A stretch of DNA of 44,948 bases, the filler included, from an uncultured Methanosarcinales archaeon (GTDB lineage Archaea > Nanobdellota > Nanobdellia > Woesearchaeales > DSVV01), in assembly GCA_964593285.1 (NCBI GenBank). It is 8 parts of 8 records of this genome, joined end to end, with 100 filler letters (N's around TTAATTAATTAA, not from the genome) between each part and the next. Parts side by side here need not be neighbours in the genome. Positions count along the whole stretch, not along the records: positions 1 to 8,343 come from CAZQHZ010000030.1; 7 more parts are not named here. One strand, 5' to 3'. This document shows, piece by piece, positions 1-39,768 of the stretch (position 1 is the first letter of the stretch; every line of letters begins with the position of its first letter). Both the position numbers and the translations under genes were made by a program. A model generated the notes under the pieces. It was given only the letters and a program-made list of their open reading frames with translations, did no database searches and was not told where the DNA came from.

Positions 1-18
1 TAAAATAAAGGTGTTAAT

Positions 19-1686
19 TTGTTAAAAAATATTATTAATGAAGATTGTTATAAATTAAATATCATAAATTATTGTAATAATAATTGTTATTGTTGTAATA
101 ATAATTCTTTTGAAGAAAAATATTATAAAGATTTTCTTAAAATTATTGAAGAAATTAAAACAACAAATAAAAAAAATATTTTAATTTATGGTGGTGAGCC
201 AACATTGTATCCAGTTTTTTTTAAATTAATTAATTTACTTAAAAATTATTTTCAAAAAATAATTCTTTTAACTAATGGTAGAATTTTTTCTAATGATCTT
301 TTTTTAAATAAAATTATTAATTTTGATTTAGTTTATATCATAAAATTAAATGCTTCAAATTCTCTTATACATGACAAAATTTCAAAAGTTAATAATTCAT
401 TTAATCAAACAATTCAAGGAATAACAAAGTTAGTAAATTTTAAACAAAAAGTTTATTTAAAATATAATTTAAATGATAGAAATTTTTTAGATATTAACAA
501 TTTTTATTTATTTATTAATAAATTAAAAATTAGTGGAATTATTTTAGAAATAAATGATTCTAAAAATTATGAAATTTATAGAAAAAAATTTGATAGTATT
601 TTTTTAGATTATAAAAAAAATATATTTTATTTAAAATATGGTGGAAATTTGAATTTTAATTCAAATAATTTAAATTTTGTGTTTGATGAAAATCCTAAAG
701 AAATTTGTTTTGAAGTTACTGCAAGATGTAATTTATCTTGCAGAAAATGTTTTAATAAAATTTACTATAATCAAAATTGCTTAAATAATGATGTTTTATC
801 ATTTGATGATATAAAAAAAATTATTGATAAAATTCCTGTTAATTTTGTAAGTCAAATAAGAATTACAGGTGGTGAACCTTTATTAAGGGAAGATATTTTT
901 GATATTTTTAAGTATATTAAGCAAAAAGGTTTTAAAATATGGCTTAATACTAATGCTACTTTAATAGATGAAAATATTGCTAAAAGAATTTCTAAATATG
1001 TAGATAATGTATTAATTTCTTTAAATGGTTATGATAAAAAAAGCGAAAAAAATATTACTGGTTTAGATTCATTTTATGAAAAAATTCAAGGTATAAAACT
1101 ATTACAAAAATATAATGTTAATGTTGTTAGATGTGGAACAATGGCAACGGAGGAAAATATTAAAAATTTAAAAAGATTTTATTTATTAGTTTTAAAACTT
1201 GGGCTTGATAGTTGGGAATTATATCGTTTGATTGATAATAAAAAATTTAGTGATATTGATTTTGAGAAAAAAAAATATAATATTTTATTTAATCAATTAG
1301 ATGTTTTAAATAGAATTTTTTTAAAAAATTTTAAAGTTGCAAATTCAATTCCTTTATGTATTTCAAAAAAAGCATATAATTTAAATTTTGGGGCTTCATC
1401 TGATGAGGGTCATATAAGATTTGTAATTGGTGCAGATGGAAGTATTAGACCTAGTTATTTTATATTTGAGAAATTAGGTAATATTTTTATTGATGATTTA
1501 AATAATGTTTGGAATTTTGGTTTTTTAAAAAAAATGAGAGATTTAAAATTTGTTACGTTTAAATGTAGAAAATGTATTTTTTTGGATAAATGCCTTGGTG
1601 GGAGTCGATATTATTCAAAATTATTTTTTGATGAATATAAACAAATAGATCCTTTAATAAATAAAAATTTTTATAATAATTTATAA
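19..1686 (+). CDS. Tandem radical SAM protein (HxsC-like rSAM + rSAM with degenerate SPASM)
   Basis: Two CxxxCxxC motifs (CNNNCYCC; CNLSCRKC), each followed by GGEP; C-terminal CRKCIFLDKCLGGSR; TTG start preceded by AAGGTG SD. Confidence 0.85.
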   Translation: MLKNIINEDCYKLNIINYCNNNCYCCNNNSFEEKYYKDFLKIIEEIKTTNKKNILIYGGEPTLYPVFFKLINLLKNYFQKIILLTNGRIFSNDLFLNKIINFDLVYIIKLNASNSLIHDKISKVNNSFNQTIQGITKLVNFKQKVYLKYNLNDRNFLDINNFYLFINKLKISGIILEINDSKNYEIYRKKFDSIFLDYKKNIFYLKYGGNLNFNSNNLNFVFDENPKEICFEVTARCNLSCRKCFNKIYYNQNCLNNDVLSFDDIKKIIDKIPVNFVSQIRITGGEPLLREDIFDIFKYIKQKGFKIWLNTNATLIDENIAKRISKYVDNVLISLNGYDKKSEKNITGLDSFYEKIQGIKLLQKYNVNVVRCGTMATEENIKNLKRFYLLVLKLGLDSWELYRLIDNKKFSDIDFEKKKYNILFNQLDVLNRIFLKNFKVANSIPLCISKKAYNLNFGASSDEGHIRFVIGADGSIRPSYFIFEKLGNIFIDDLNNVWNFGFLKKMRDLKFVTFKCRKCIFLDKCLGGSRYYSKLFFDEYKQIDPLINKNFYNNL

Positions 1687-1693
1687 ATTTAAA

Positions 1694-2503
1694 ATGGCTA
1701 AAAAAAGTAAAAATTTAATAATTAATTATAAATGTAATAGTAATTGCTATTTATGTAATTTTCCTGTTCAAAATAATAAAAAAGAAAATTTTATTTCTTT
1801 TGAAAAATTAACAGATGAAATAAACAATATTAATTTTTATAATTTTAATGAAATAAATATTTATGGTGCAGATCCATTTATACATAAAAATATATTTGAA
1901 ATATTAAAATTGATTCCAGAAGATATAAAATTGAATATATTTACTAATACACGTGCGTTATCATATAAAAATTATTGTTTTAAATTAAAAAATTTTAAAA
2001 ATTTGAATGTTTTTGTAAAAGTTTATTCAAATAATTCAAAATTACACAATTTTATAACACAAACAAGTAATAGTTTTGAGCAAACGTTAAAAGGAATTAA
2101 AAATTTATTTTTTTATAAAATAAAATTTTCAATTATTATTGATGTATGTGAACAAAATTTTGTATTTTTAAATGAAATTATTGATTTTTTTAATTCATTT
2201 AGGCCAAAAAAAATTATTATTAAACCGATTTTACCTATTGGTAAGGCTAAAGATGATTATTTTAAATTTGCTTTAAGGTATAGTGAAATTATTGATGTTT
2301 TAAAAATAAATTATGATAATATTTATGGTTTTTTTCCTTTATGTTTTTTAAATGATCGAAAAATTAATTTTTTTAATTTAGATTATTTAAATTATGAAAA
2401 ATCAAAAAATAACAAATGCATTAAATGTAAATTTTTTCAAAAATGTATTGGTATGCCTGAAGATTATGTTGATTTATTTGGTGCTGAAGAGTTATTGGGT
2501 TAA
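1694..2503 (+). CDS. HxsC-like radical SAM protein
   Basis: CNSNCYLC motif; GADP in place of GGEP; HNFITQTSNSFEQTLKGIKNL; C-terminal CxxCx5CxG..Y..FG..EL tail resembling HxsC-like proteins. Confidence 0.75.
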   Translation: MAKKSKNLIINYKCNSNCYLCNFPVQNNKKENFISFEKLTDEINNINFYNFNEINIYGADPFIHKNIFEILKLIPEDIKLNIFTNTRALSYKNYCFKLKNFKNLNVFVKVYSNNSKLHNFITQTSNSFEQTLKGIKNLFFYKIKFSIIIDVCEQNFVFLNEIIDFFNSFRPKKIIIKPILPIGKAKDDYFKFALRYSEIIDVLKINYDNIYGFFPLCFLNDRKINFFNLDYLNYEKSKNNKCIKCKFFQKCIGMPEDYVDLFGAEELLG

Positions 2504-2515
2504 TTTTTATAAAAA

Positions 2516-5500
2516 ATGAAAAATAATAATAAAATCTTGTTGATAAATCCTTTTTGGAGTTTCACTAAAATTTTTCCTCCTGTAAATTTAGCTCAACTAG
2601 CTGGATTTGTTAGACAAAATGGTTTTGATGTTTCAATATTAGATTTGAATTATGAGTTATCAATGTTGAAAATTCTTGATATTAATTTTTTTTTAGATGA
2701 ATCTTTAAAATTGATAAAAAAATATAATCCTAAAATAGTTGGTCTTATTTGTGACACTGTTCATTTGCCTTTTTGTGTTAAATTTATTCCTTTATTAAAA
2801 AAAACATTCTCTAATATTAAAATAATTATTGGTGGAAATCATGCATCTTCAGATCCTAAAAAAATGTTTGAGTTATTTCCAATTGATTTTGTTGTTATTG
2901 GAGAAGGTGAGTTAACTTTTGTTGAATTATTAGATTCTTTAATTTTTAAAAAAGATTTTTCTTTAATTAAAGGAATTTCTTATAAAAATGAATTTAATAA
3001 AATTGTTATCAATTTAAAAAGGGAATTAATTAATGATTTATCTATTTTGCCAATGCCTGCATACGATTTAATTTTAAATTTAAATTATTATTTAAAATTT
3101 AAAGATGTTGAATTAGGAATTTCTGGTTCACGTGGATGCTTTCATTCTTGTTTATTTTGTGCAAGTAATGTTTTTTGGGGACATCAAAGATTTAGAAAAG
3201 TTGATCATATTATTAATGAAATAAAATTTTTAATAAAAAATTATAATATTAAAAAAATATCTTTTGATGATTTATGTTTAACAAATAATAAAAAATGGTT
3301 TTTAGAATTACTTGAAAAAATAACCCCCTTAAATATAAAAATTAGGGGCTTTGCACGAATTGATCATCTTGATGAAGATTTAATTATTAAAATTAAAAAA
3401 GCAGGTTTTTATAGATTATATCATGGAATAGAATCTGGTTCTAGTAGACTTAGAAATTTATTACATAAAAATATTAAAAATGATTTGTCTAATGGAAAAA
3501 TAATAAAATTAATAAATTTTGAATTAGAAAATAATATATTACCTGTTTGTTCGTTTATGTCTGCAATTCCAACTGAAACAGTAGATGATTTTCATCAAAC
3601 ATTTAATTTATTAAAACAATTAAAAAATATTGGTGCGCAGGTTCAATTCTGGATTATGACCCCATACCCTGGAATTTATGCAAATGAAAAATTTAAAAAG
3701 GATATTATATGGTTTGATAGATGGAAAGAATTAAAACAATCTGATATATTTTTTGAAGAACAACGTATTTTGTTTTCTGATGCTTTAGATAAGCTGAAGA
3801 ATGTAAATCCTGATAATTTTATGTTTAAACCAAATATTCCATTAAAAAAATTTCTTAAATTATATAATTTTGTTGTTAATGAATTGGATCTTAAAAGATG
3901 TGAAAATTATTTATTCATAAAACCACCAATAGAAGAAATAATTCCACCATTTAAAAATGTTAAGGATTATTATTCTAATCCATTTGGTTTTTTTTCTTAT
4001 GGTTCACAGCCAATTGGTTTTTTAAAAATTGCTTCATATTTTAAACATTTAGGTAATAATGTTAAATTTATTGATTGTGCAAGTGAATCTTCAAAGAATA
4101 ATAAAAATTCTATTTTTAATATTAAAAAAATTGGTTATAAAAAAACTGGTGATGGTAAAAGACAATATCCTTTATATCATTGTGGTTTGGATTATAGTGA
4201 TTTTACAAATTTGTTAATTGATCAAAAAAAACCTGATAAAATATTTATTACAACTAGTATGACATATCATTTTAGACCAGTTCATAAAATAATTGAAATT
4301 TGTAAACAATTTTTTCCTAATTCACTTGTTATTGTTGGTGGTATTTATGCTAGTATTTCTCCTGAGCATTTATTAAAAACTAAAGCGGATTTTATTTTTT
4401 GTGGTCAATTTAAAGAATCGGAAGATTATAATTCTGATTTAAATTTACTTGATTATAAACCTCATTATGCCGTTGTTAAATCAACGAGGGGTTGTCCTAA
4501 TAAATGTAGTTATTGTGCTGTTCATATGCTTGAAGGAAATGAAATGTTTTTTAGAAATTATAAAGATACATTTAATGAAATTAAATCAAAGTATGATGAA
4601 GGTATTAAAAATTTTATTTTTTGGGAATCTAATCTTTTAGTAAATTGTAAAAATCATTTTGAAAAAATTTTAGATTTAATTATAAAAAATAATTTAAATA
4701 TTGATTTATCAGCACCAGAAGGTCTTCAACCAAATTTAATTAATTATTCTTTAGCAGAAAAAATGAAAAAAGCAGGGTTTAGTAAAATTCATTTACCACT
4801 TGAAACATCTACTAAAAAAATTGAACAACAATTTAATAGACCTTCAAATTTATATTTTTTTAAAAAAGCCATAAAAATTTTTAAAAAAGCTGGCTTTAGT
4901 GGTAAAAATATAATTTGTTTTATTTTATTTGGATTTGCAAATGATAAATTGGAGACTGTAATTGATTCTTTTATAAAAACATGGGAAGAAGGTTGTGTTC
5001 CTAAAATTATGCCTTTTACTCCTATTCCAAATACTATTGAATATAAAAAAAGTTATGAATTAATTAAAGATAAAGATTATGACGATTTACATCCTTTTTT
5101 ATTTCCTTTTTCAAAAGATTCTTTTTCTGCTAAAGATTGTGAGGATATTTGTAATTTACATAGAGTTAAAAACCCCATAAATTACTTTAAAAATAATTAT
5201 TTTTCTTCTAAAGTTAATAAATTATTTATTTTGAAAATAAAAAGTTCAAAAAAAATATGGGATAATTATTATTTAAATAATTTTAATACTTTAAATTGGA
5301 TAAAGGATATTCCTGATACAATAATTGTGGAATTTATTAAAAATTTTAATAAATATTTTAATATTAATGATTTTAATAAATTTAATGTTTTAGATATTGG
5401 GTGTGGCGTTGGAAAAAATTCTTTGTTTTTAGAAAAAAAAGGATTTAATGTATATGGTATTGATATTTCTAAAATTGCAATTAATAATTTAAATAAAAAT

Positions 5501-5899
5501 ATAAAAAGTAGAAATAATTTTATTGTAGGTAATTTTTTAAATGTAAATTATAAAAAAAATAAATTTGATATAATAATTGATGTTGGATGTTTTCATATGG
5601 TTGATAAAAAATACTTTCAAAAATATATTAATCAAGTTCATGATATTTTAAAACCAAATGGTATTTTTATTATAAGGGTTTTTTCAGAATATGCAAATTA
5701 TTCAACGAGATTTTTTCAAAATAGTAATTTAGATACTTTAAAATCTCCTTTTTTAAATTATTTTACAAAAAAATATATTTTTAATCTGTTTAAAAATAAA
5801 TTTATATTGAAAAATTTTAAAGAAAATTTTTGGTCTATAAATTTAGAAAAAAATAATTTATCTCCAGGAATTTATGAATTAATTTTTAAAAAAATTTAA
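2516..5899 (+). CDS. Fusion: B12-binding rSAM + second B12-binding-like rSAM + class I SAM methyltransferase
   Basis: LLINP/IIIGGNHAS/VIGEGE cobalamin-binding domain; SRGCFHSCLFC; GIESGS; second module IVGGIYAS, TRGCPNKCSYC; VLDIGCGVGKN and FDIIIDVGCFH MTase motifs. Confidence 0.9.
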   Translation: MKNNNKILLINPFWSFTKIFPPVNLAQLAGFVRQNGFDVSILDLNYELSMLKILDINFFLDESLKLIKKYNPKIVGLICDTVHLPFCVKFIPLLKKTFSNIKIIIGGNHASSDPKKMFELFPIDFVVIGEGELTFVELLDSLIFKKDFSLIKGISYKNEFNKIVINLKRELINDLSILPMPAYDLILNLNYYLKFKDVELGISGSRGCFHSCLFCASNVFWGHQRFRKVDHIINEIKFLIKNYNIKKISFDDLCLTNNKKWFLELLEKITPLNIKIRGFARIDHLDEDLIIKIKKAGFYRLYHGIESGSSRLRNLLHKNIKNDLSNGKIIKLINFELENNILPVCSFMSAIPTETVDDFHQTFNLLKQLKNIGAQVQFWIMTPYPGIYANEKFKKDIIWFDRWKELKQSDIFFEEQRILFSDALDKLKNVNPDNFMFKPNIPLKKFLKLYNFVVNELDLKRCENYLFIKPPIEEIIPPFKNVKDYYSNPFGFFSYGSQPIGFLKIASYFKHLGNNVKFIDCASESSKNNKNSIFNIKKIGYKKTGDGKRQYPLYHCGLDYSDFTNLLIDQKKPDKIFITTSMTYHFRPVHKIIEICKQFFPNSLVIVGGIYASISPEHLLKTKADFIFCGQFKESEDYNSDLNLLDYKPHYAVVKSTRGCPNKCSYCAVHMLEGNEMFFRNYKDTFNEIKSKYDEGIKNFIFWESNLLVNCKNHFEKILDLIIKNNLNIDLSAPEGLQPNLINYSLAEKMKKAGFSKIHLPLETSTKKIEQQFNRPSNLYFFKKAIKIFKKAGFSGKNIICFILFGFANDKLETVIDSFIKTWEEGCVPKIMPFTPIPNTIEYKKSYELIKDKDYDDLHPFLFPFSKDSFSAKDCEDICNLHRVKNPINYFKNNYFSSKVNKLFILKIKSSKKIWDNYYLNNFNTLNWIKDIPDTIIVEFIKNFNKYFNINDFNKFNVLDIGCGVGKNSLFLEKKGFNVYGIDISKIAINNLNKNIKSRNNFIVGNFLNVNYKKNKFDIIIDVGCFHMVDKKYFQKYINQVHDILKPNGIFIIRVFSEYANYSTRFFQNSNLDTLKSPFLNYFTKKYIFNLFKNKFILKNFKENFWSINLEKNNLSPGIYELIFKKI

Positions 5900-6264
5900 T
5901 AATATCCACCACCACCGCCACCGCTACTATGGCTACAGTGTTTTGTAGTAAAATTTACATGGTTATAATGATGATCATGTTGAACTTTTAGAGTAGAATC
6001 TCCTTTTGTAATTACAGAATTTTTGTGTTCTCCACAATTAAAATGTTGTGATGCATCTGCTTTTGCTTTTTTTGAAACTTGACACTCTTTGAGTAATTTA
6101 TTAGGGTCGTTTGCTTCTCCTGCTATTACTTTTTTTGTTGCAATGCTACTAATTGAAATTGCACTAATTAATCCTCCAATTGCAATAATTGATTGTTTTG
6201 AAATTTTACCTTCTTCATTTAGCATAAAGTCATTAACTTTTTTTTTAAATTTTGGAATGTCCAT
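5896..6264 (-). CDS. Putative HxsA-like RiPP precursor peptide (His-Xaa-Asn/Ser repeats)
   Basis: Directly downstream of hxsB; triplets HFN, HKN, HDH, HYN, HVN, HCS, HSS; C-terminal GGGGGGYY; hydrophobic N-terminal segment. Confidence 0.8.
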   Translation of the reverse strand: MDIPKFKKKVNDFMLNEEGKISKQSIIAIGGLISAISISSIATKKVIAGEANDPNKLLKECQVSKKAKADASQHFNCGEHKNSVITKGDSTLKVQHDHHYNHVNFTTKHCSHSSGGGGGGYY

Positions 6265-6285
6265 TTTTTATTTTTATGTTAAAAG

Positions 6286-6300
6286 TATATTTAAACTTTT
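6286..6300 (-). promoter_or_regulatory. Archaeal TATA box + BRE-like element for the precursor gene
   Basis: Minus strand AAAAG-TTTAAATATA, first T of the box 31 nt upstream of the ATG at 6264; no SD (probably leaderless). Confidence 0.55.
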
Positions 6301-6303
6301 TGT

Positions 6304-7695
6304 TTATTTTAACCAGTTTTCAAAAATTTTTTTAAATTTTTTATCAAAAAGATATTTTTCAAATATATATTTAAATTGTTCTTTATAAATTTTACAAAAG
6401 GTTGTTTTTGGAATTATTGCATAAGTTGTATTTTGTTCAACATAATTACATACAGGACATATACCGCAGTATGGTTTAAACGGACAATAAATACAAGTGG
6501 TTGTATCATTTATTGAAGAAGATATTATGCTACAGGATTTTTCTGAATTAATTATTTTTTCATAATTATCGTTTTTTACATTACCAAGTTTAAATAAATC
6601 TTCATTTAACATTCTTCCTTCATCGCAAGAAAAAATTTCACCATTGTAATTATATGCTAATTGTCCAATTACAGCACCACAAGGGTTTCTCATTTCAAGA
6701 TAATTTGGATCAAAATCACTAAGTATTTTTTGTAATATTATTAAGGTTGTTCTTTCAGTTATGAATGTATTTTTTAAATTTAATTCAATTATATAATCAA
6801 GTGATTTTTTCCAAAATTTGATAAATTCTTCGCATGAATATTCTATTTTAGTTTTATTTTTTTCAGCATATCCTAATTTATTTAAAAACCTTAAATGAAT
6901 GCTTTCAAACCCTAACTTTACATATTCATCTATTATTTCTTTGTGATATTTTAGTGTTTCTCTTGAAGTTGTTAGTAATGCACCAATTTGATGTTTATAA
7001 TTTGAATTATTTATTTTTTTAATCCATTTTATAATTTCATCATAATTAGATTCTTTTGATATTCTATTTTTATCATGTAAAAATTTTGGGCCATCAAGTG
7101 AAGTGCAAATGGTTATATTATTTTTTATGCAGTATTTTAATATTTCACCAGTCATTACTGAAAGGTTTGTAACTATTGTTTTTTGGAGATTTTTTTTATG
7201 TATTTTATTTAATTTTTTAGCATATTCATTTATTTCTTTTATTATATTAAAATTAAGTAGTGGTTCACCTCCTTGAAATTCAATTGTTAAAAAATCTGTT
7301 TTACTTTGAAAAATAAAATCAACAACTTTTTTTGCTGTATTTTTATCCATATCAAATTCTTTTTTTTCTTTTGGTTTAGAAGATGCATGACAGTATATAC
7401 ATTTTAAATTACATCTAAGTGTAACAACAACAATATGTAAAGAAGTTCCTTGACTTAAATGGGTATTTCTTTTTAATAATTTTTCTTTAATCTTAATTTT
7501 GTTATTTTTTGTAATTATTATTCCTGTTTTTTCAAGTTTTTCAAATAATTTTTTTTTTTTTATATTTTTAGTTGTTAAATTTTCAAATTCATTTTTATTT
7601 AAAAGTGTAAAACTACCATGATTTGTAGTAATTAAAAATTTATTTTTAATTTTCATAAAAATATAATTATTTATTAAATAAGAATTTTTATTCAT
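6304..7695 (-). CDS. hxsB: His-Xaa-Ser system radical SAM/SPASM maturase HxsB
   Basis: TSLHIVVVTLRCNLKCIYCHAS, IEFQGGEPLLN, RNPCGAVIGQLAYNYNGEIFSCDEGR, CIYCPFKPYCGICPVCNY; next to hxsD. Confidence 0.9.
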   Translation of the reverse strand: MNKNSYLINNYIFMKIKNKFLITTNHGSFTLLNKNEFENLTTKNIKKKKLFEKLEKTGIIITKNNKIKIKEKLLKRNTHLSQGTSLHIVVVTLRCNLKCIYCHASSKPKEKKEFDMDKNTAKKVVDFIFQSKTDFLTIEFQGGEPLLNFNIIKEINEYAKKLNKIHKKNLQKTIVTNLSVMTGEILKYCIKNNITICTSLDGPKFLHDKNRISKESNYDEIIKWIKKINNSNYKHQIGALLTTSRETLKYHKEIIDEYVKLGFESIHLRFLNKLGYAEKNKTKIEYSCEEFIKFWKKSLDYIIELNLKNTFITERTTLIILQKILSDFDPNYLEMRNPCGAVIGQLAYNYNGEIFSCDEGRMLNEDLFKLGNVKNDNYEKIINSEKSCSIISSSINDTTTCIYCPFKPYCGICPVCNYVEQNTTYAIIPKTTFCKIYKEQFKYIFEKYLFDKKFKKIFENWLK

Positions 7696-7909
7696 TTTTC
7701 ATGTATCCTAAAGCGAAATTACAAAATTCATCTTTTACTTCTTGTATTTCTTTTTCGCTAATATTTTCATTTAATTTAATTTTTATTATAAAATTTATTT
7801 TGTCTTCTATTAATTGAATTTCACATAATTTTATAAAATCTTTTATTGCAAGATTTATTGCTTTTTTTGAATATAAATTTTTATTGAAATTTATTGTTAA
7901 ATTATTCAT
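7688..7909 (-). CDS. Small HxsD-like protein
   Basis: FNKNLYSKKAI...DEFCNFAL resembles the N-terminal half of the neighbouring HxsD; 8-nt overlaps with both neighbours. Confidence 0.65.
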   Translation of the reverse strand: MNNLTINFNKNLYSKKAINLAIKDFIKLCEIQLIEDKINFIIKIKLNENISEKEIQEVKDEFCNFALGYMKNE

Positions 7910-8309
7910 TTTTTTTATGTTTTTCTTCCCATGGAATTAGTATTCCTTCTGGGTCATTAATTTCTTCATCATTGATTTTTTGGTCTATTTCTTGATTTTG
8001 TACTAAATTATCATTTTCAATAATTTTTGTTGCATTGTTATGGTAGAGAATTTCGTTTAATAATTGTTTTTTTATTTCAATTGTATCTTTATTAAGCGAT
8101 ATTAAATTTGCATAATTTAGTAATTGATTTTTAAATTCATCGGTAAATTTAGTAATATCTTCTTTATTTTTTAATTTAATATGAGCAATAATTTCATTTT
8201 CATTTTTTTGTGTTAAAAAGATATATGCTTTATCTAAAAACATATAAGATGTTGTATATATACAATCTAGTGGATATAAATTTTTATCAATTATTATTTT
8301 TGTTTCCAT
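7902..8309 (-). CDS. hxsD: His-Xaa-Ser system protein HxsD
   Basis: IDKNLYPLDCIYTTSYMFLDKAYIFL...EFKNQLLNY...TIEIKKQLLNEIL; C-terminal DPEGILIPWEEK. Confidence 0.8.
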   Translation of the reverse strand: METKIIIDKNLYPLDCIYTTSYMFLDKAYIFLTQKNENEIIAHIKLKNKEDITKFTDEFKNQLLNYANLISLNKDTIEIKKQLLNEILYHNNATKIIENDNLVQNQEIDQKINDEEINDPEGILIPWEEKHKKNE

Positions 8310-8343
8310 TTTTATTAGATTTTTTTATTAATTTAAATTTTTT

Positions 8344-34493: not shown

Positions 34494-34834
34494 TTAAATA
34501 AAATGATTAAATTTTTTAATTAATTTAAACCTAAAAAAATATTAATAAAACCAATTTAACCTTTTGGAAAAGTTAAGAAAAATAATTTAAAATTTGCTTT
34601 AAGTTTAATTGAAATTATTGTTATTTTAAAAATTAATTAGAATAAAATTAATGCTTTTTTTCTTTAATGTTTTTTAATAATTAAAAAAATAAATTTTTTA
34701 ATTTTAATTATTTAAATTATGAAAAATCAAAAAATGAAAAATGCATTGAATGTAAGTTTTTTCAAAAATGTATTGGTATGCCTGAAGATTATGTTGATTT
34801 ATTTGGAATAAAAGAAATAATTAATTTTAAATAA
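34494..34834 (+). pseudogene. 3' part of a second copy of the HxsC-like rSAM (pseudogene or low-quality contig end)
   Basis: Collinear with 2168-2503; distal part reads LNYEKSKNEKCIECKFFQKCIGMPEDYVDLFG; proximal part has 4 in-frame stops and a 1-nt shift. Confidence 0.8.
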
Positions 34835-34865
34835 TTAGTTGTAATAATTTTTTTAAATATTTAAA

Positions 34866-37800
34866 ATGAACAAAGATAATATTAAAGTAACTTTTATTAA
34901 TCCTTTTTGGAATTTTAAAAAATTAATAGTTCCTTTCAATTTATTAAATATTGCATCTTTTATAGAATATAATAATTTTAATACATCAATAATTGATTTA
35001 AATTATGAATTAATTAATTTTAGAATTTTAAATAATGATTTATTTGTTAATAAATCAATAGATATTATAAAAAAAGAAAAAACTGAATTTGTTTGTATTA
35101 ATTGTGAAATGGTTGATTTTCCTTTTTGTTTTAAATTAATTCCATTATTAAAAAAAGAAATACCTCAATTAAAAATAATTTTATTTGGAGATTTTGTTTA
35201 TAATTTTTATAAAAAGTTATTTCAAGTTTTACCTATTGATTTTATTATTTATGATAAAATTAATTTAAATTTATTAGATTTTTTAAATAAGTATTTATTG
35301 AATAATTCTTTTGAAAATATAAATGATGTTTCTGGTTTAATTTATAAAGATATTAATGAAAATATTAAAAAAAATAATGTAAATAAATCCTTTATTTATA
35401 AAAATAAAACTTTTAAATTACCAAAATATAATTTATTAAAAAATTTTAATAATTATATTAAAAAAAATGACTTTGAATTTTTTATATCTTGTTTAAATAA
35501 TGATTATTATGATAATTATATTAAAACTAAATATTATAATTATTATTTTAATAAAAAGGAAAATGATTTAAAAAATATAAAAAATATTATAAATGAAATT
35601 ATTTTTTTAAAAAAGAAATATCAAATTAATAATTTTTCATTTGGGAATTTTTGTTTAACTAATGATTTAAATTGGTTTAATAATTTATTAAAATCTTTAA
35701 TTCCATTAAATATAAGTATTAGTGGTTTTATTAAAATTAATGATGTAAATAAAAATATTTTATTATTAATGAAAAATGCTGGTTTCAAAAAAGTATATCA
35801 AAATATAAATTCTGGAAGTTTAAGATTAAGACAAATTTTAAATAATGATTTTTTTGATGATTTAACTAATGAAGAAATTTTTAAAAAAATAAATTATCAA
35901 ATTAAATTAAATTTAATTCCTATTTGCATTTTTAATGTTGGTATTTTTTCAGAAGAAAAAGAAGAATTTAATAAAACAATTAAATTTGCAAAAAAATTAA
36001 ATTTAGTTGGTGCAAAAATAAAATTAAAAATTCAAAATATTCATCCAAAAATAATTTCTAACAAATATTTTTTAGGTAGGTATGTTTTTATTTATAAATG
36101 GAATCTTTTTAGTCAATCTAATTTTTTTGATTTAGAGCAACGTATGTTTTTTAGTAAAATTTTATGTCAAATTGATATTTTTAATTTAGACAATTATATT
36201 TTTAAGTCAATTTTATCAATTGAAGAGTTTATTAATTTATATAAATGTGCTTTAACTGAATTAAATTTAATTAAAAAAGAAGATTATTTATTAATAAAAC
36301 CACCAATTGAAGAAATTTTTTCTGAGTCATATATTAATAAAAATGATTTAAATCAGGAAAATTGTGCATTTTTCAATCATGCTTCCCAACCTTATGGTTT
36401 ATTAAAAATAAGTTCTTATTTAAAATATCATGGAAAAAATGTTTCTTTTATTAATTGTTCTTCTGAAGGACCAAACTTTAAAAAAAATTCAATATATAAT
36501 GTTAAATTTAAAAATCATATAAAGACGGGGGATGGTAAACTAAAAAAATCAATATTTCATTGTGGTTTAGACTATTTTAATTTTAAAAAAATACTACTAA
36601 AAATAAAAAATCCACCTAATATTATTTTTATTACTTCAACAATGACCTATCATTTTAGACCAGTTCATAAAATAATTGAAATTTGTAAAAAAATTTTTCC
36701 CAATTCACTTATTATTGTTGGAGGAATATATGCAAGTATTTCTCCTGAGCATTTATTAAAAACAAATGTAGATTTTGTTTTTTGTGGTCAATTTATGGAT
36801 GCTGAAAATTTTAATTCTGATTTAGATATTTTAGATTACAAACCAGACTATGCAATAATTAAATCTACAAGGGGATGTCCAAACAAATGCAGTTATTGTG
36901 CAGTTCATATGATTGAAGGGAATAAAATGTTTTTTAGAAATTATAAAGATACATTTAACGAAATTAAACAAAAATATGATAAAGGTATTAAAAGTTTTGT
37001 TTTTTGGGAATCTAATTTATTAATAAATTTTAAAAATCATTTTGGAAAAATTTTAGATTTAATCATAAAATACAATTTAAAAGTAGATTTACTTGCACCA
37101 GAAGGTCTTCAGCCAAATTTAATTAATTATTCTTTAGCTAAAAAAATGAAAAAAGCGGGTTTTAATAAAATTAGTTTGCCTCTAGAAACTTCTGATAAAA
37201 AATTAGAATTAAAATTAAATAGACCATCTAAGTTAAATTTTTTTAAAAACGCAATAGAAATTTTTAATAATGTAGGTATTAAAAGATATAATATTGGTTG
37301 TTTTATTCTAATAGGTTTACCTAATCAAGATATAGATGACGTTATTAATTCTTTAATTATTGTTTGGGAATCAGGTGCATTTGTTAGAATTATGCCATTT
37401 ACTCCTATACCAAATACAAAAGAATATATTGATAATTATGATTTTTTGAAAAATAAGGAATATCATAAATTATCTCCTAATTTATATCCTTTTTCAAATA
37501 AATTTTTTTCTAGTTATGATATTGAAATTTTATCAAAATTCCATGGTATTTTTGAACCTATTTTTTTCTATTTATCTATTTGTACAAAATCAGATATTGA
37601 CTATAAAATTATTTCAAAAATTAAAAATTCAAAAAAAATATGGGACAATTTTTATTCTAATTTTAAATATTTTTATTGGTCAAATGATATCGTTGATACA
37701 ATAATTATTGATTTTATTAAAAACATTAATAATAATTTAAATAAAAAAATTTATAATAATTTAAATGTTTTAGATATTGGATGTGGTTTAGGTAGAAATT

Positions 37801-38273
37801 CTTTATTTTTAGAGCAAAAAGGATTTAATGTATATGGTGTTGATATCTCTAAAGTTGCAATTGATAATTTAAATAAAAAAATAAAGAATAAAACAAATTT
37901 TGTTGTTGGAAATTTTTTAAATGTAAAATATAATAGTAATTTTTTTGATATTTTAGTAGATATTGATTGTTTAAGTTTTTTAGATAAAAATGATTTTGAT
38001 AAATATATAAAAAAAAATTATGATATTTTAAAACCAGGGGGTATTTTAATATTAAGAGTTTTTAGAGAAGATGCAAATTATTCAAAAAGATTTTTTTTAA
38101 GAAAGGGTTTTAGGAAATCTTCATTTGTAAATTATTTTACAAAAACAAAAATTATTAAATTATTTTCAAGATATTTTCAAATAAAATCAATTAAAAACAA
38201 TCTTTTTGTATTTAATTATAGAAAAAACAAAATTTCACCCTCTGTTTTTGAAATAATTATGAAAAAATTTTAA
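34866..38273 (+). CDS. Paralog of 2516-5899: degenerate B12-rSAM + intact rSAM + methyltransferase
   Basis: Collinear over full length; first CxxxCxxC absent; TRGCPNKCSYC and VLDIGCGLGRN retained. Confidence 0.9.
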   Translation: MNKDNIKVTFINPFWNFKKLIVPFNLLNIASFIEYNNFNTSIIDLNYELINFRILNNDLFVNKSIDIIKKEKTEFVCINCEMVDFPFCFKLIPLLKKEIPQLKIILFGDFVYNFYKKLFQVLPIDFIIYDKINLNLLDFLNKYLLNNSFENINDVSGLIYKDINENIKKNNVNKSFIYKNKTFKLPKYNLLKNFNNYIKKNDFEFFISCLNNDYYDNYIKTKYYNYYFNKKENDLKNIKNIINEIIFLKKKYQINNFSFGNFCLTNDLNWFNNLLKSLIPLNISISGFIKINDVNKNILLLMKNAGFKKVYQNINSGSLRLRQILNNDFFDDLTNEEIFKKINYQIKLNLIPICIFNVGIFSEEKEEFNKTIKFAKKLNLVGAKIKLKIQNIHPKIISNKYFLGRYVFIYKWNLFSQSNFFDLEQRMFFSKILCQIDIFNLDNYIFKSILSIEEFINLYKCALTELNLIKKEDYLLIKPPIEEIFSESYINKNDLNQENCAFFNHASQPYGLLKISSYLKYHGKNVSFINCSSEGPNFKKNSIYNVKFKNHIKTGDGKLKKSIFHCGLDYFNFKKILLKIKNPPNIIFITSTMTYHFRPVHKIIEICKKIFPNSLIIVGGIYASISPEHLLKTNVDFVFCGQFMDAENFNSDLDILDYKPDYAIIKSTRGCPNKCSYCAVHMIEGNKMFFRNYKDTFNEIKQKYDKGIKSFVFWESNLLINFKNHFGKILDLIIKYNLKVDLLAPEGLQPNLINYSLAKKMKKAGFNKISLPLETSDKKLELKLNRPSKLNFFKNAIEIFNNVGIKRYNIGCFILIGLPNQDIDDVINSLIIVWESGAFVRIMPFTPIPNTKEYIDNYDFLKNKEYHKLSPNLYPFSNKFFSSYDIEILSKFHGIFEPIFFYLSICTKSDIDYKIISKIKNSKKIWDNFYSNFKYFYWSNDIVDTIIIDFIKNINNNLNKKIYNNLNVLDIGCGLGRNSLFLEQKGFNVYGVDISKVAIDNLNKKIKNKTNFVVGNFLNVKYNSNFFDILVDIDCLSFLDKNDFDKYIKKNYDILKPGGILILRVFREDANYSKRFFLRKGFRKSSFVNYFTKTKIIKLFSRYFQIKSIKNNLFVFNYRKNKISPSVFEIIMKKF

Positions 38274-38304
38274 CCAAATTTATGTTAGCTAAAATTATTT
38301 TTTT

Positions 38305-38589
38305 ATGATTAAAAGAGCAAATCATTGTGCATTTGATATCCATTATCACTTAATTATTGTAATGAAATTTCGAAAAAAAATTCTAATAAAACAAAATTTT
38401 ATTGTACGTTTGTTTGATATTATTAAAGGTGTAGAAAAAAGATATAGGTATGAAATCAAAAAAATAGTACTAATAATGATCATGTCCATATTTTTTTCAG
38501 TGCTTTTCCAAGAGATTCACCATATAAAATAATGAATATTATTAAGAGCATAACTGCTAAAGAGATATTTAAAAGTTTTTCTGAAATAA
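38305..38589 (+). pseudogene. tnpA: IS200/IS605 TnpA (Y1 transposase) remnant, frameshifted and truncated
   Basis: HCAFDIHYHLIIVMKFRKK; after a frameshift NDHVHIFF..P..SP..IMNIIKSITAKEIFK; catalytic-Tyr region missing. Confidence 0.85.
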
Positions 38590-39640
38590 CCCAAGTTTGA
38601 TAGTTAAAAATTAAAAAGTGTTCTTAGTTTGTAAGTTCTAACATAAAACAAACAAACCCAAGAACAATAGATATAAAGAAGAACTTAAATATATTTTTTT
38701 CAGTTGGAATTGCCTTTGCAGTTGAAAAACTTCATTTTTCAGATATTTTTAGCAAATTTAAGGAAAAAAAGATTTCTTTAACTAATTTAAATAACGCTTT
38801 AATTTCTTATAAGTTAATTGATAATTTAAGTCTAACGAGAGGTAGTGATTGAATTAATAGAACTGAAGTTCTTGAAACATTTAATTTAAAGTCTTTTGAA
38901 CAAAAGACTTTGTATAGTACAATTAAAATAATTGATGAAAGATATCAGGAAGTAATTCTTGTTTTAGAAGATAGCTTATTCAATCAATATAATTTTGAAC
39001 CTGGATTAGCCTTATACTTTTTGGGATAAGGCGAAAATTGGAGAATATGTTTGTAGTAGAAATCATAGACCCGATAAAAAACAGATTACTTTTGGAATAA
39101 CTGAACTTTGAAAACCAATCAATATTCAAATTGATTTAACAATTGGAGAAGGTAATGTTAATGATCAAACTCATTTTCAAACAACATTTAATCAAATAAA
39201 ATATGTTTGAAAAGAAATTCTAAAATTATTTTTGATAAGAGAGGAAATTCTAAAGAGAATCTTAATTCAGCAATTGTATCAAATATACAATTTCTAACTG
39301 CTAAGAAATTGAATACAAGTGATAATAAAATCATCAAATCTTTTTGGAGAAAAAACCCAATTTTAGTTGATTCAGAAAATGAAGTTTATGGTATAAGAAT
39401 ACATTTCCCTAGTCGGATAAATTATTTTTTCTTTTCGAGAAAATTAAAGCAAGAAAATATAGACTCTGCTTTAAGAAAAGCAGAAAGACAGCTTAAAGAA
39501 GCAAAAGAAATAGAATCGGCAAAAGAAAAAGATAGAACATTACCCAAACGATTCAGACTTAATAATATTTTAGTTGATGCAACAATTAAATATTAGACAA
39601 AGCTTAAAAGTTTATCTGAATTTGAAACTTTTAAAATGGT
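38590..39640 (+). mobile_element. Decayed IS1634-family element (DDE transposase pseudogene)
   Basis: Fragments LISYKLIDNLSLTRGSD*INR, SRNHRPDKKQITFG, GNVNDQTHF, IIFDKRGN, FLTAKKLNTSD; starts with IR-like CCCAAGTTTGATAG; right end not found, end coordinate approximate. Confidence 0.8.
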
Positions 39641-39768
39641 AAAAAAATTTGGAGGCAAATGTGAATTATCTAAAATTGTAAAATAATTTATATGCAAAGC
39701 CTACATTTTGGGGTAATATAAAATCCTAATTATTCTCAAACAAATTAATAAAGATTTATGTTGGCTTC

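Follow-up and report, generated by a model that had tools for sequence, protein, structure and literature searches.

The closest described systems to the gene cluster reported here are the His-Xaa-Ser (HXS) systems, a family credited to Haft and Basu in 2011 (PMC9062424). According to the main text of Li et al. (2026; PMC13128918), the Escherichia coli HXS system acts against phages: HxsB, HxsC and HxsD mature an exported HxsA, which is processed at its N terminus, gains 8 Da on the HxS motif and blocks the entry of phage DNA. The gain amounts to +C/−4H, so HXS enzymes can both oxidise and add carbon. The same main text places 99.7% of HXS systems in Pseudomonadota, counts more than 99.8% as four-gene systems and makes no mention of archaea, B12, methyltransferase, peptidase or protease (PMC13128918). 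We studied a stretch of 44,948 nucleotides, filler included (hereafter the window), from assembly GCA_964593285.1 of an uncultured archaeon placed in the Woesearchaeales; several small contigs are joined by N in it, and positions 1–8343 are the entire contig C30. A sequence-only reading had recognized an HXS-type cluster there and had not known HXS products to be characterised, a view that the E. coli antiphage system and its +8 Da modification correct (PMC13128918). The C30 cluster is probably an expanded archaeal HXS-type peptide-maturation system, with an exported, modified product that acts at the cell surface.

An HXS-type cluster on one contig

Contig C30 contains zero N, and its 8.3 kb are filled by seven open reading frames, all found where the sequence-only reading had placed them. 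The − strand carries genes for HxsD (7902–8309; 135 amino acids), an HxsD-like protein (7688–7909; 73 amino acids), HxsB (6304–7695; 463 amino acids) and an HxsA3-like precursor (5896–6264; 122 amino acids). Converging on these, the + strand carries genes for a double radical S-adenosylmethionine (SAM) protein of 555 amino acids (19–1686), an HxsC-like radical SAM protein of 269 amino acids (1694–2503) and a 1,127-amino-acid fusion of two B12-binding radical SAM modules with a methyltransferase (2516–5899). Six CxxxCxxC motifs (C19 and C237 of the 555-amino-acid protein, C14 of the 269-amino-acid protein, C208 and C660 of the fusion, C95 of HxsB) and the Pfam matches of the C30 proteins (Radical_SAM six times, B12-binding twice and a methyltransferase at fusion residues 958–1049) bear out the domain content proposed earlier. 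The 4-nucleotide TTAA at 5896–5899 does contain the stop codons of both convergent last genes, as had been noted; we attach no meaning to it, such an overlap being unremarkable in DNA of about 20% GC. Because the first + strand gene begins 19 bases from the end of the contig, that operon may be truncated, which makes six radical SAM domains a lower bound.

Searches with family models support the Hxs assignment. HxsB scored 483.5 bits against TIGR03978 (cut-off 370) and the 73-amino-acid protein 62.1 bits against the HxsD-like model NF038315 (cut-off 41). Among the four models proposed for such a search, TIGR03976 to TIGR03979, only TIGR03978 was passed: HxsD reached 44.6 bits with TIGR03976 (cut-off 50, E 1.4e-11), TIGR03977 (HxsC) also stayed below cut-off, and TIGR03979 (HxsA) did not match the 122-amino-acid peptide. 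The structure model of HxsB, a radical SAM/SPASM maturase, has a pLDDT of 93 and starts with three strands followed by helices, resembling a RiPP (a peptide made ribosomally and modified post-translationally) recognition element (RRE); its nearest solved fold is 5wgg, a thioether-forming RiPP maturase (TM 0.70). HxsB thus shares fold and domain order with RRE-radical-SAM-SPASM maturases such as 5wgg and the PapB-family model, but differs from them in sequence (about 21% identity) and in core residues, which are His with Ser or Asn. The model of HxsD shows a small alpha/beta domain, a long helix and an acidic tail; a fold search returned nothing beyond generic alpha/beta folds (best Z 8.3), and its topology is unlike that of an RRE. 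Fusions of these proteins occur elsewhere, with HxsD-like joined to HxsB in locus L033 and probably also in L059 (562 amino acids).

The + strand proteins are more divergent. Residues 13–168 of the 555-amino-acid protein match HxsC best (TIGR03977, 83.2 bits; cut-off 267.9), and the whole protein gives the best HxsC score of the window (116 bits). Its C-terminal half, which ends in a Cys-rich, possibly SPASM/twitch-like region, is matched best by AhbD/NirJ-type models, none above cut-off. The 269-amino-acid protein is also closest to HxsC (70.8 bits), followed by HxsC4 (60.8 bits; cut-off 500). In the fusion, B12-radical-SAM module 1 spans residues 1–461 approximately, module 2 residues 462–905 and a class I SAM methyltransferase residues 906–1127, so that a B12-binding domain followed by a CxxxCxxC radical SAM domain is present twice. 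ApyD, BchE, HpnJ, TokK, OxsB and CysS have the same domain pair; unlike these cobalamin-dependent enzymes, the fusion holds two such modules and a methyltransferase in one chain. It reached no NCBIfam cut-off (best 148 and 72 bits), methylases and non-methylases scored alike, and a sequence search found no solved relative of module 2. Matches of window proteins to PADLOC models (viperin, mad2, PDC-M51A) reflect generic radical SAM or methyltransferase similarity.

With the Pseudomonadota systems the archaeal cluster shares an HxsB above cut-off, HxsD-type small proteins, HxsC-like radical SAM domains, a precursor that has His triplets and an export-type leader at its N terminus, and the core order D-B-A. 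It differs from their D-B-C-A layout in that D, D-like, B and A converge on three more radical SAM genes. No HxsC exceeds its cut-off, and many divergent HxsC-like domains lie on the opposite strand or elsewhere; the 122-amino-acid precursor has no peptidoglycan-binding domain and mostly H-x-N triplets; and the archaeal cluster has, in addition, an HxsD-like gene, B12-radical-SAM and methyltransferase modules and an A24 peptidase of its own. By three tested features, the cluster is not a canonical four-gene HXS system. NCBI already names HxsB in Woesearchaeota records and holds models of variant precursors. Of the NCBIfam variants (HxsA3 NF038309, HxsA4, HxsA2, HxsC4 NF038332 and HxsD-like NF038315), HxsC4 is the best or second match of several domains, but its scores fall far below 500, and the window precursor reaches 32 bits against 65 for HxsA3. 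In the open-access literature we came across no account of an HXS system that is archaeal, expanded or linked to a peptidase, although the supplements of the HXS paper and NCBIfam curator comments could mention such variants.

A leader family and its accompanying peptidase

The 122-amino-acid precursor begins with a conserved leader of about 48 residues that includes an invariant E-x-G and a hydrophobic stretch. Its core has eight His in H-x-N or H-x-S triplets and closes with a Gly run and Tyr-Tyr. The peptide had been described as carrying His triplets, and it does; strict H-x-S occurs only twice (H109 and H112), and the other four are H-x-N (H74, H80, H99 and H102). Against HxsA3 (NF038309) it scored 32.1 bits (cut-off 65), and Pfam found no family in it, including no peptidoglycan-binding domain. 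In an alignment of 37 precursors, 36 matched HxsA3 and 14 matched HxsA4. The three Cys of our precursor are not conserved across this alignment, in which the conserved core residues are His; thioether chemistry is therefore not indicated, and we did not place the peptide among ranthipeptides or sactipeptides, which are defined by Cys-rich cores. The aromatic-x-x spacing of its triplets presumably recalls the substrates of three-residue cyclophane (triceptide) enzymes. Matches in the ESM Atlas all scored below 0.9 and fell in Woesearchaeota and Omnitrophota clusters; we treat them as leads only.

We built a profile from 29 leaders, which retrieved 941 representatives at E ≤ 0.001; the following statistics describe its best 150 relatives. 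E-x-G is present in 149, followed by Lys or Arg in 141 of these. A second Gly lies 11 residues after E-x-G in 96%, ahead of about 12 mostly apolar residues, and a basic residue stands two positions before that Gly in 60%, where our precursor has Ala. An Ala-rich end is often found near +28 to +30. This leader may resemble those of Flp prepilins. The cores contain at least three His in 137 relatives, at least one H-x-S in 119 and at least one H-x-N in 129; a His spacing of three dominates the family (301 cases), the commonest third residues are Ser and Asn, and some relatives carry long H-x-S runs. An aromatic residue stands within the last three positions in 106. Median net charge of the cores is −2 and 93% are neutral or acidic, whereas the core of our precursor is at +2. 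A simple motif filter detected Hint/intein-like inserts in the cores of five of the 150 (P0067, P0099, P0119, P0139 and P0145), with L125:18260–19450 listed alongside; these inserts end in His-Asn ahead of a short tail, and self-splicing could assemble or release the core.

To describe neighbourhoods, we used 60 loci from 55 of the 79 other HxsB-positive genomes of the order, chosen for longer contigs. The most conserved neighbour outside the radical SAM family is an A24 peptidase with PF06819, present in 40 of the 60 loci; in 34 it lies no more than 2 kb upstream of hxsB. The copy in our genome, on contig C13, lies just above the cut-offs of PF01478 and PF06819 when matching stretches are summed, and of 39 family members, 35 retain one catalytic Asp and 38 the other. 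Among 301 genomes of the order, 79 encode this peptidase subfamily; 70 of them also encode HxsB, and the peptidase occurs in 69 of the 73 leader-bearing genomes. HxsB, peptidase and leader occur together in 63 genomes, leader and peptidase without a detected HxsB in six, HxsB alone in seven and none of the three in 211, counts that overstate the association, in that related genomes are not independent, and that may include misses of single-query searches. With PF06819 itself (E ≤ 1e-5), 25 of 27 positive genomes had HxsB. The tallies of HxsB, peptidase and leader include an unpublished genome (G208), without which the overlaps fall by one.

A pilin-like surface protein that flanks many loci was found in 222 of the 301 genomes (a tally that also includes G208, G245, G183, G206, G121 and G112); given this wide occurrence, the peptidase follows the Hxs leader and not the surface protein. 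An ordinary prepilin peptidase is encoded separately on contig C22. That the peptidase accompanies the leader in 69 of 73 genomes suggests that the precursor is exported. The sequence-only reading had picked up neither the conserved export-type leader nor this dedicated peptidase, nor the further loci of the system in the genome. PF01478, PF06819 and two conserved Asp are shared with the prepilin peptidases EppA, FlaK and PibD (PMC4187195, PMC4858521); unlike those, the C13 family tracks the Hxs leader, and its proposed substrate is acidic before and has Lys after the invariant Gly. In L031 and L124 the peptidase is fused to a further domain of about 500 amino acids. Loci L125 and L126, from genomes with the peptidase and no detected HxsB, encode HxsD fused straight to the leader and a Cys/Gly-rich core, which suggests that HxsD and the peptidase may serve the leader itself.

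Distribution, proposed route and role

Of the 301 genomes in the order, 80 encode HxsB, 69 of them with a score above cut-off. A conservative motif count, which scored five for the six domains of the C30 cluster, gave at least six radical SAM domains in 10 of the 60 loci. The rarity implied by the sequence-only reading does not hold: six radical SAM domains are typical of larger clusters and not exceptional. In 14 of the 60 loci, radical SAM genes no more than 3 kb away converge on hxsB and the precursor gene, and 25 adjoin a conserved gene cluster for surface proteins. This cluster, seen also at L092:181–11022, encodes large Cys-rich secreted proteins and proteins with a K-x-Q class III signal; it has no Pfam matches and occurs in 222 of the 301 genomes. 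The neighbours of hxs loci that carry an annotation have housekeeping, glycosylation or surface-protein functions.

The data behind the expanded HXS reading are the genes present, their family matches, and their patterns of co-occurrence and synteny; leader binding, all chemistry, cleavage and export are proposed steps. The conserved leader would hold the precursor, probably on the RRE-like domain of HxsB, with HxsD and the HxsD-like protein as helpers. The radical SAM domains of HxsB and the HxsC-like proteins would oxidise the H-x-S and H-x-N triplets, most likely into three-residue crosslinks from His to a side chain, and the B12 fusion would add methyl groups as an optional accessory. The C13 aspartyl peptidase would trim the leader after Gly19 or Gly30, and the mature product would be exported to act at the cell surface. 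As for the biological role, we tentatively place contact with a host or neighbouring cell slightly ahead of an antiviral barrier.

Several points weigh against this reading, the dependence among counted genomes given above being one. No protein of the genome exceeds the HxsC cut-off of TIGR03977 (best 163 against 267.9), and B12-radical-SAM genes, found in 11 of the 60 HxsB loci, are absent from most; for this reason we regard the fusion as an optional accessory that the system can do without. The peptidase gene of this genome lies on C13, away from the contig of the cluster. No Pfam pilin or signal family matched any of the 29 leaders. Class III signal peptides (PMC4187195) have basic residues at −2/−3, then Gly or Ala at −1, then a hydrophobic stretch from +1; the invariant E-[ED]-G, with acidic residues before Gly and Lys or Arg after it, reverses this rule. 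No B12 importer of the BtuCD/BtuF type was found in the genome, which is 95.9% complete; ECF-type (energy-coupling factor) importers were not searched.

The same biochemistry could instead serve defence, the matured peptide, like E. coli HxsA, blocking entry of viral DNA at the envelope, which we regard as a realistic possibility that nevertheless falls short of an even chance. Defence is the only function tested for any HXS system, going by the main text of that study (PMC13128918). The distribution is patchy, too, with HxsB in none of four genomes of the same family; in a quick HxsB tree, clades at family level stand beside families that are split; and cores and accessory enzymes vary strongly among loci. 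Four findings, however, lead us to rate host or neighbour contact above it: the precursor lacks a peptidoglycan-binding domain; the E. coli model needs basic repeats, whereas archaeal cores are mostly neutral or acidic (our precursor, at +2, departs from the median); of the 148 nearest non-Hxs neighbours (from 401 candidates, scored without a background set), seven match PADLOC, all through generic domains; and the surface-protein cluster adjoins 25 of the 60 loci.

Release of the product as a peptide that binds copper, zinc or nickel, in place of a surface effector, is unlikely. Eight core His and the neutral-to-acidic cores of the family would suit metal binding, and noursin, an unrelated lanthipeptide, needs its His crosslink to bind copper (PMC10206099). 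Yet no metal transporter family recurs among clustered or annotated neighbours, and neither FecCD nor periplasmic-binding-protein-2, which could serve re-uptake, has a match in the genome.

A less probable alternative still makes the three + strand genes unrelated neighbours whose enzymes work on lipids, cofactors or other proteins. They lie opposite in strand to the hxs core, their best family matches include BchE, HpnJ, AhbD and NirJ models, few HxsB genomes have the B12 fusion, and a duplicate of the fusion on contig C35 has no hxs core beside it. Against this, the BchE, HpnJ, AhbD and NirJ scores are all far below cut-off, and HxsC is the best match of two domains. Module 2 occurs in six of the 301 genomes, all HxsB-positive; of the five other genomes, four have it within the retrieved hxsB locus (contigs of 9–17 kb), and the fifth has its matches about 140 kb from hxsB. 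Two loci from other families, L053 and L111, repeat the order of the C30 cluster, with an HxsC-like/NirJ-like gene and a B12-radical-SAM-methyltransferase gene converging on precursor, hxsB and hxsD, and have a peptidase gene upstream; close homologues of the C-terminal half of the 555-amino-acid protein converge on hxsB in L053, L111 and L084. Co-occurrence with hxsB elsewhere, named earlier as a test of the cluster, is thus observed. Full triple fusions with both cysteine motifs were found in three other proteins of about 1,110 amino acids (P0153, P0154 and P0156).

Homologues also point to the host. Of 120 HxsB homologues listed, the 12 named to an organism were from Woesearchaeota (seven), other archaeal labels (four) and Patescibacteria (one), a taxonomy that rests on these named homologues, the bacterial range being outside the survey; scanning named genomes with HxsB yielded just two loci, both weak and irrelevant. 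All three organism-named homologues of the fusion were from Woesearchaeota. We infer a Woesearchaeota-like cell as host, in agreement with the DPANN-type archaeon proposed earlier. The genome has 1.18 Mb. The end of C30 overlaps the start of the 102-kb contig C2 by 55 exact bases, unique in the assembly, in which 12 other contig pairs are linked by similar end overlaps; C2 encodes diphthine synthase. A public contig, from a possible source run, spans 4542–8343 and extends 9.75 kb beyond 8343, and in a second study of microbial mats one contig crosses the convergent junction (5833–6024). Four public runs revealed nothing beyond the left end of C30. A bacterial contaminant, as might be suspected from a GC content (19.8%) below the genome average and a tetranucleotide distance within the top 10% of same-sized chunks, is highly improbable and largely refuted by the join to C2, by the public contig and by relatives of the first C2 genes, which flank hxs loci in 25 of the 60 loci, so that the bin membership assumed earlier stands.

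Taken across the order, it is plausible, though less than an even bet, that about a quarter of its small, host-dependent members make membrane-processed, radical-SAM-crosslinked, methylated His-repeat surface peptides, which their own prepilin-type peptidase would free from a novel sort of leader, for host contact or antiviral use. Such a costly iron-sulfur pathway is kept by roughly a quarter of the Woesearchaeota-like archaea sampled, although their genomes are tiny and few biosynthetic abilities are known from them. If the proposal is right, this would be a first natural-product pathway of DPANN archaea, with a prepilin peptidase recruited as RiPP leader protease, and it would indicate a type for the leader protease that the main text of the bacterial HXS study leaves unnamed (PMC13128918). 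It would offer a testable molecular handle on the dealings of uncultured cells with hosts or viruses. It would also supply a large set of radical SAM enzymes, the two-B12-module fusion included, for short, simple His-triplet peptides that should be expressible in a laboratory host. A 1.18-Mb genome would then be spending no fewer than 17 radical SAM domains, together with two precursors and the unusual double-B12-radical-SAM/methyltransferase, on one pathway.

Further loci in the same genome

Genes of the system are spread over several contigs, with at least 17 radical SAM domains in total. On C13 (L091:6692–17636) the peptidase gene is divergent from seven radical SAM genes with nine CxxxCxxC domains, mostly HxsC-like; one is a HemN-like/HxsC-like fusion and one has a ferredoxin domain. 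An hxsD-like gene lies at the end of this contig and another HxsC-like gene at its start. The array may be the upstream continuation of the C30 cluster; no end overlap in the assembly supports its directly preceding C30. Contig C3 encodes a second precursor (70146–70369, + strand; L132) that shares the leader of the first, and stops as an H-x-S run begins. At the end of C21 (L093:3699–6338) sits a third hxsD-like gene, with iscU and a cysteine desulfurase-like gene divergent from it. SAM synthetase and IscU are both encoded in the genome.

The duplicate of the fusion lies at 34866–38273 of the window (+ strand, C35). It has lost the CxxxCxxC of module 1 and kept module 2, with the sole motif at C671, and the methyltransferase; identity to the C30 fusion is 36%, 61% and 58% by module. 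It is preceded by a remnant of the duplicated 3′ half of the 269-amino-acid gene (34494–34793, + strand; 83% nucleotide identity to 2168–2468), in which we read an in-frame stop by eye. A short open reading frame after the paralogue, within 34494–39768, may be a piece of an IS200-type transposase. Two further genes lie elsewhere in the window: an archaeal Kae1 gene on the contig next to C30 (8450–9433, − strand), and a stand-alone B12-binding radical SAM gene on C31 (12502–13890; 462 amino acids) that is weakly similar to module 1 of the fusion.

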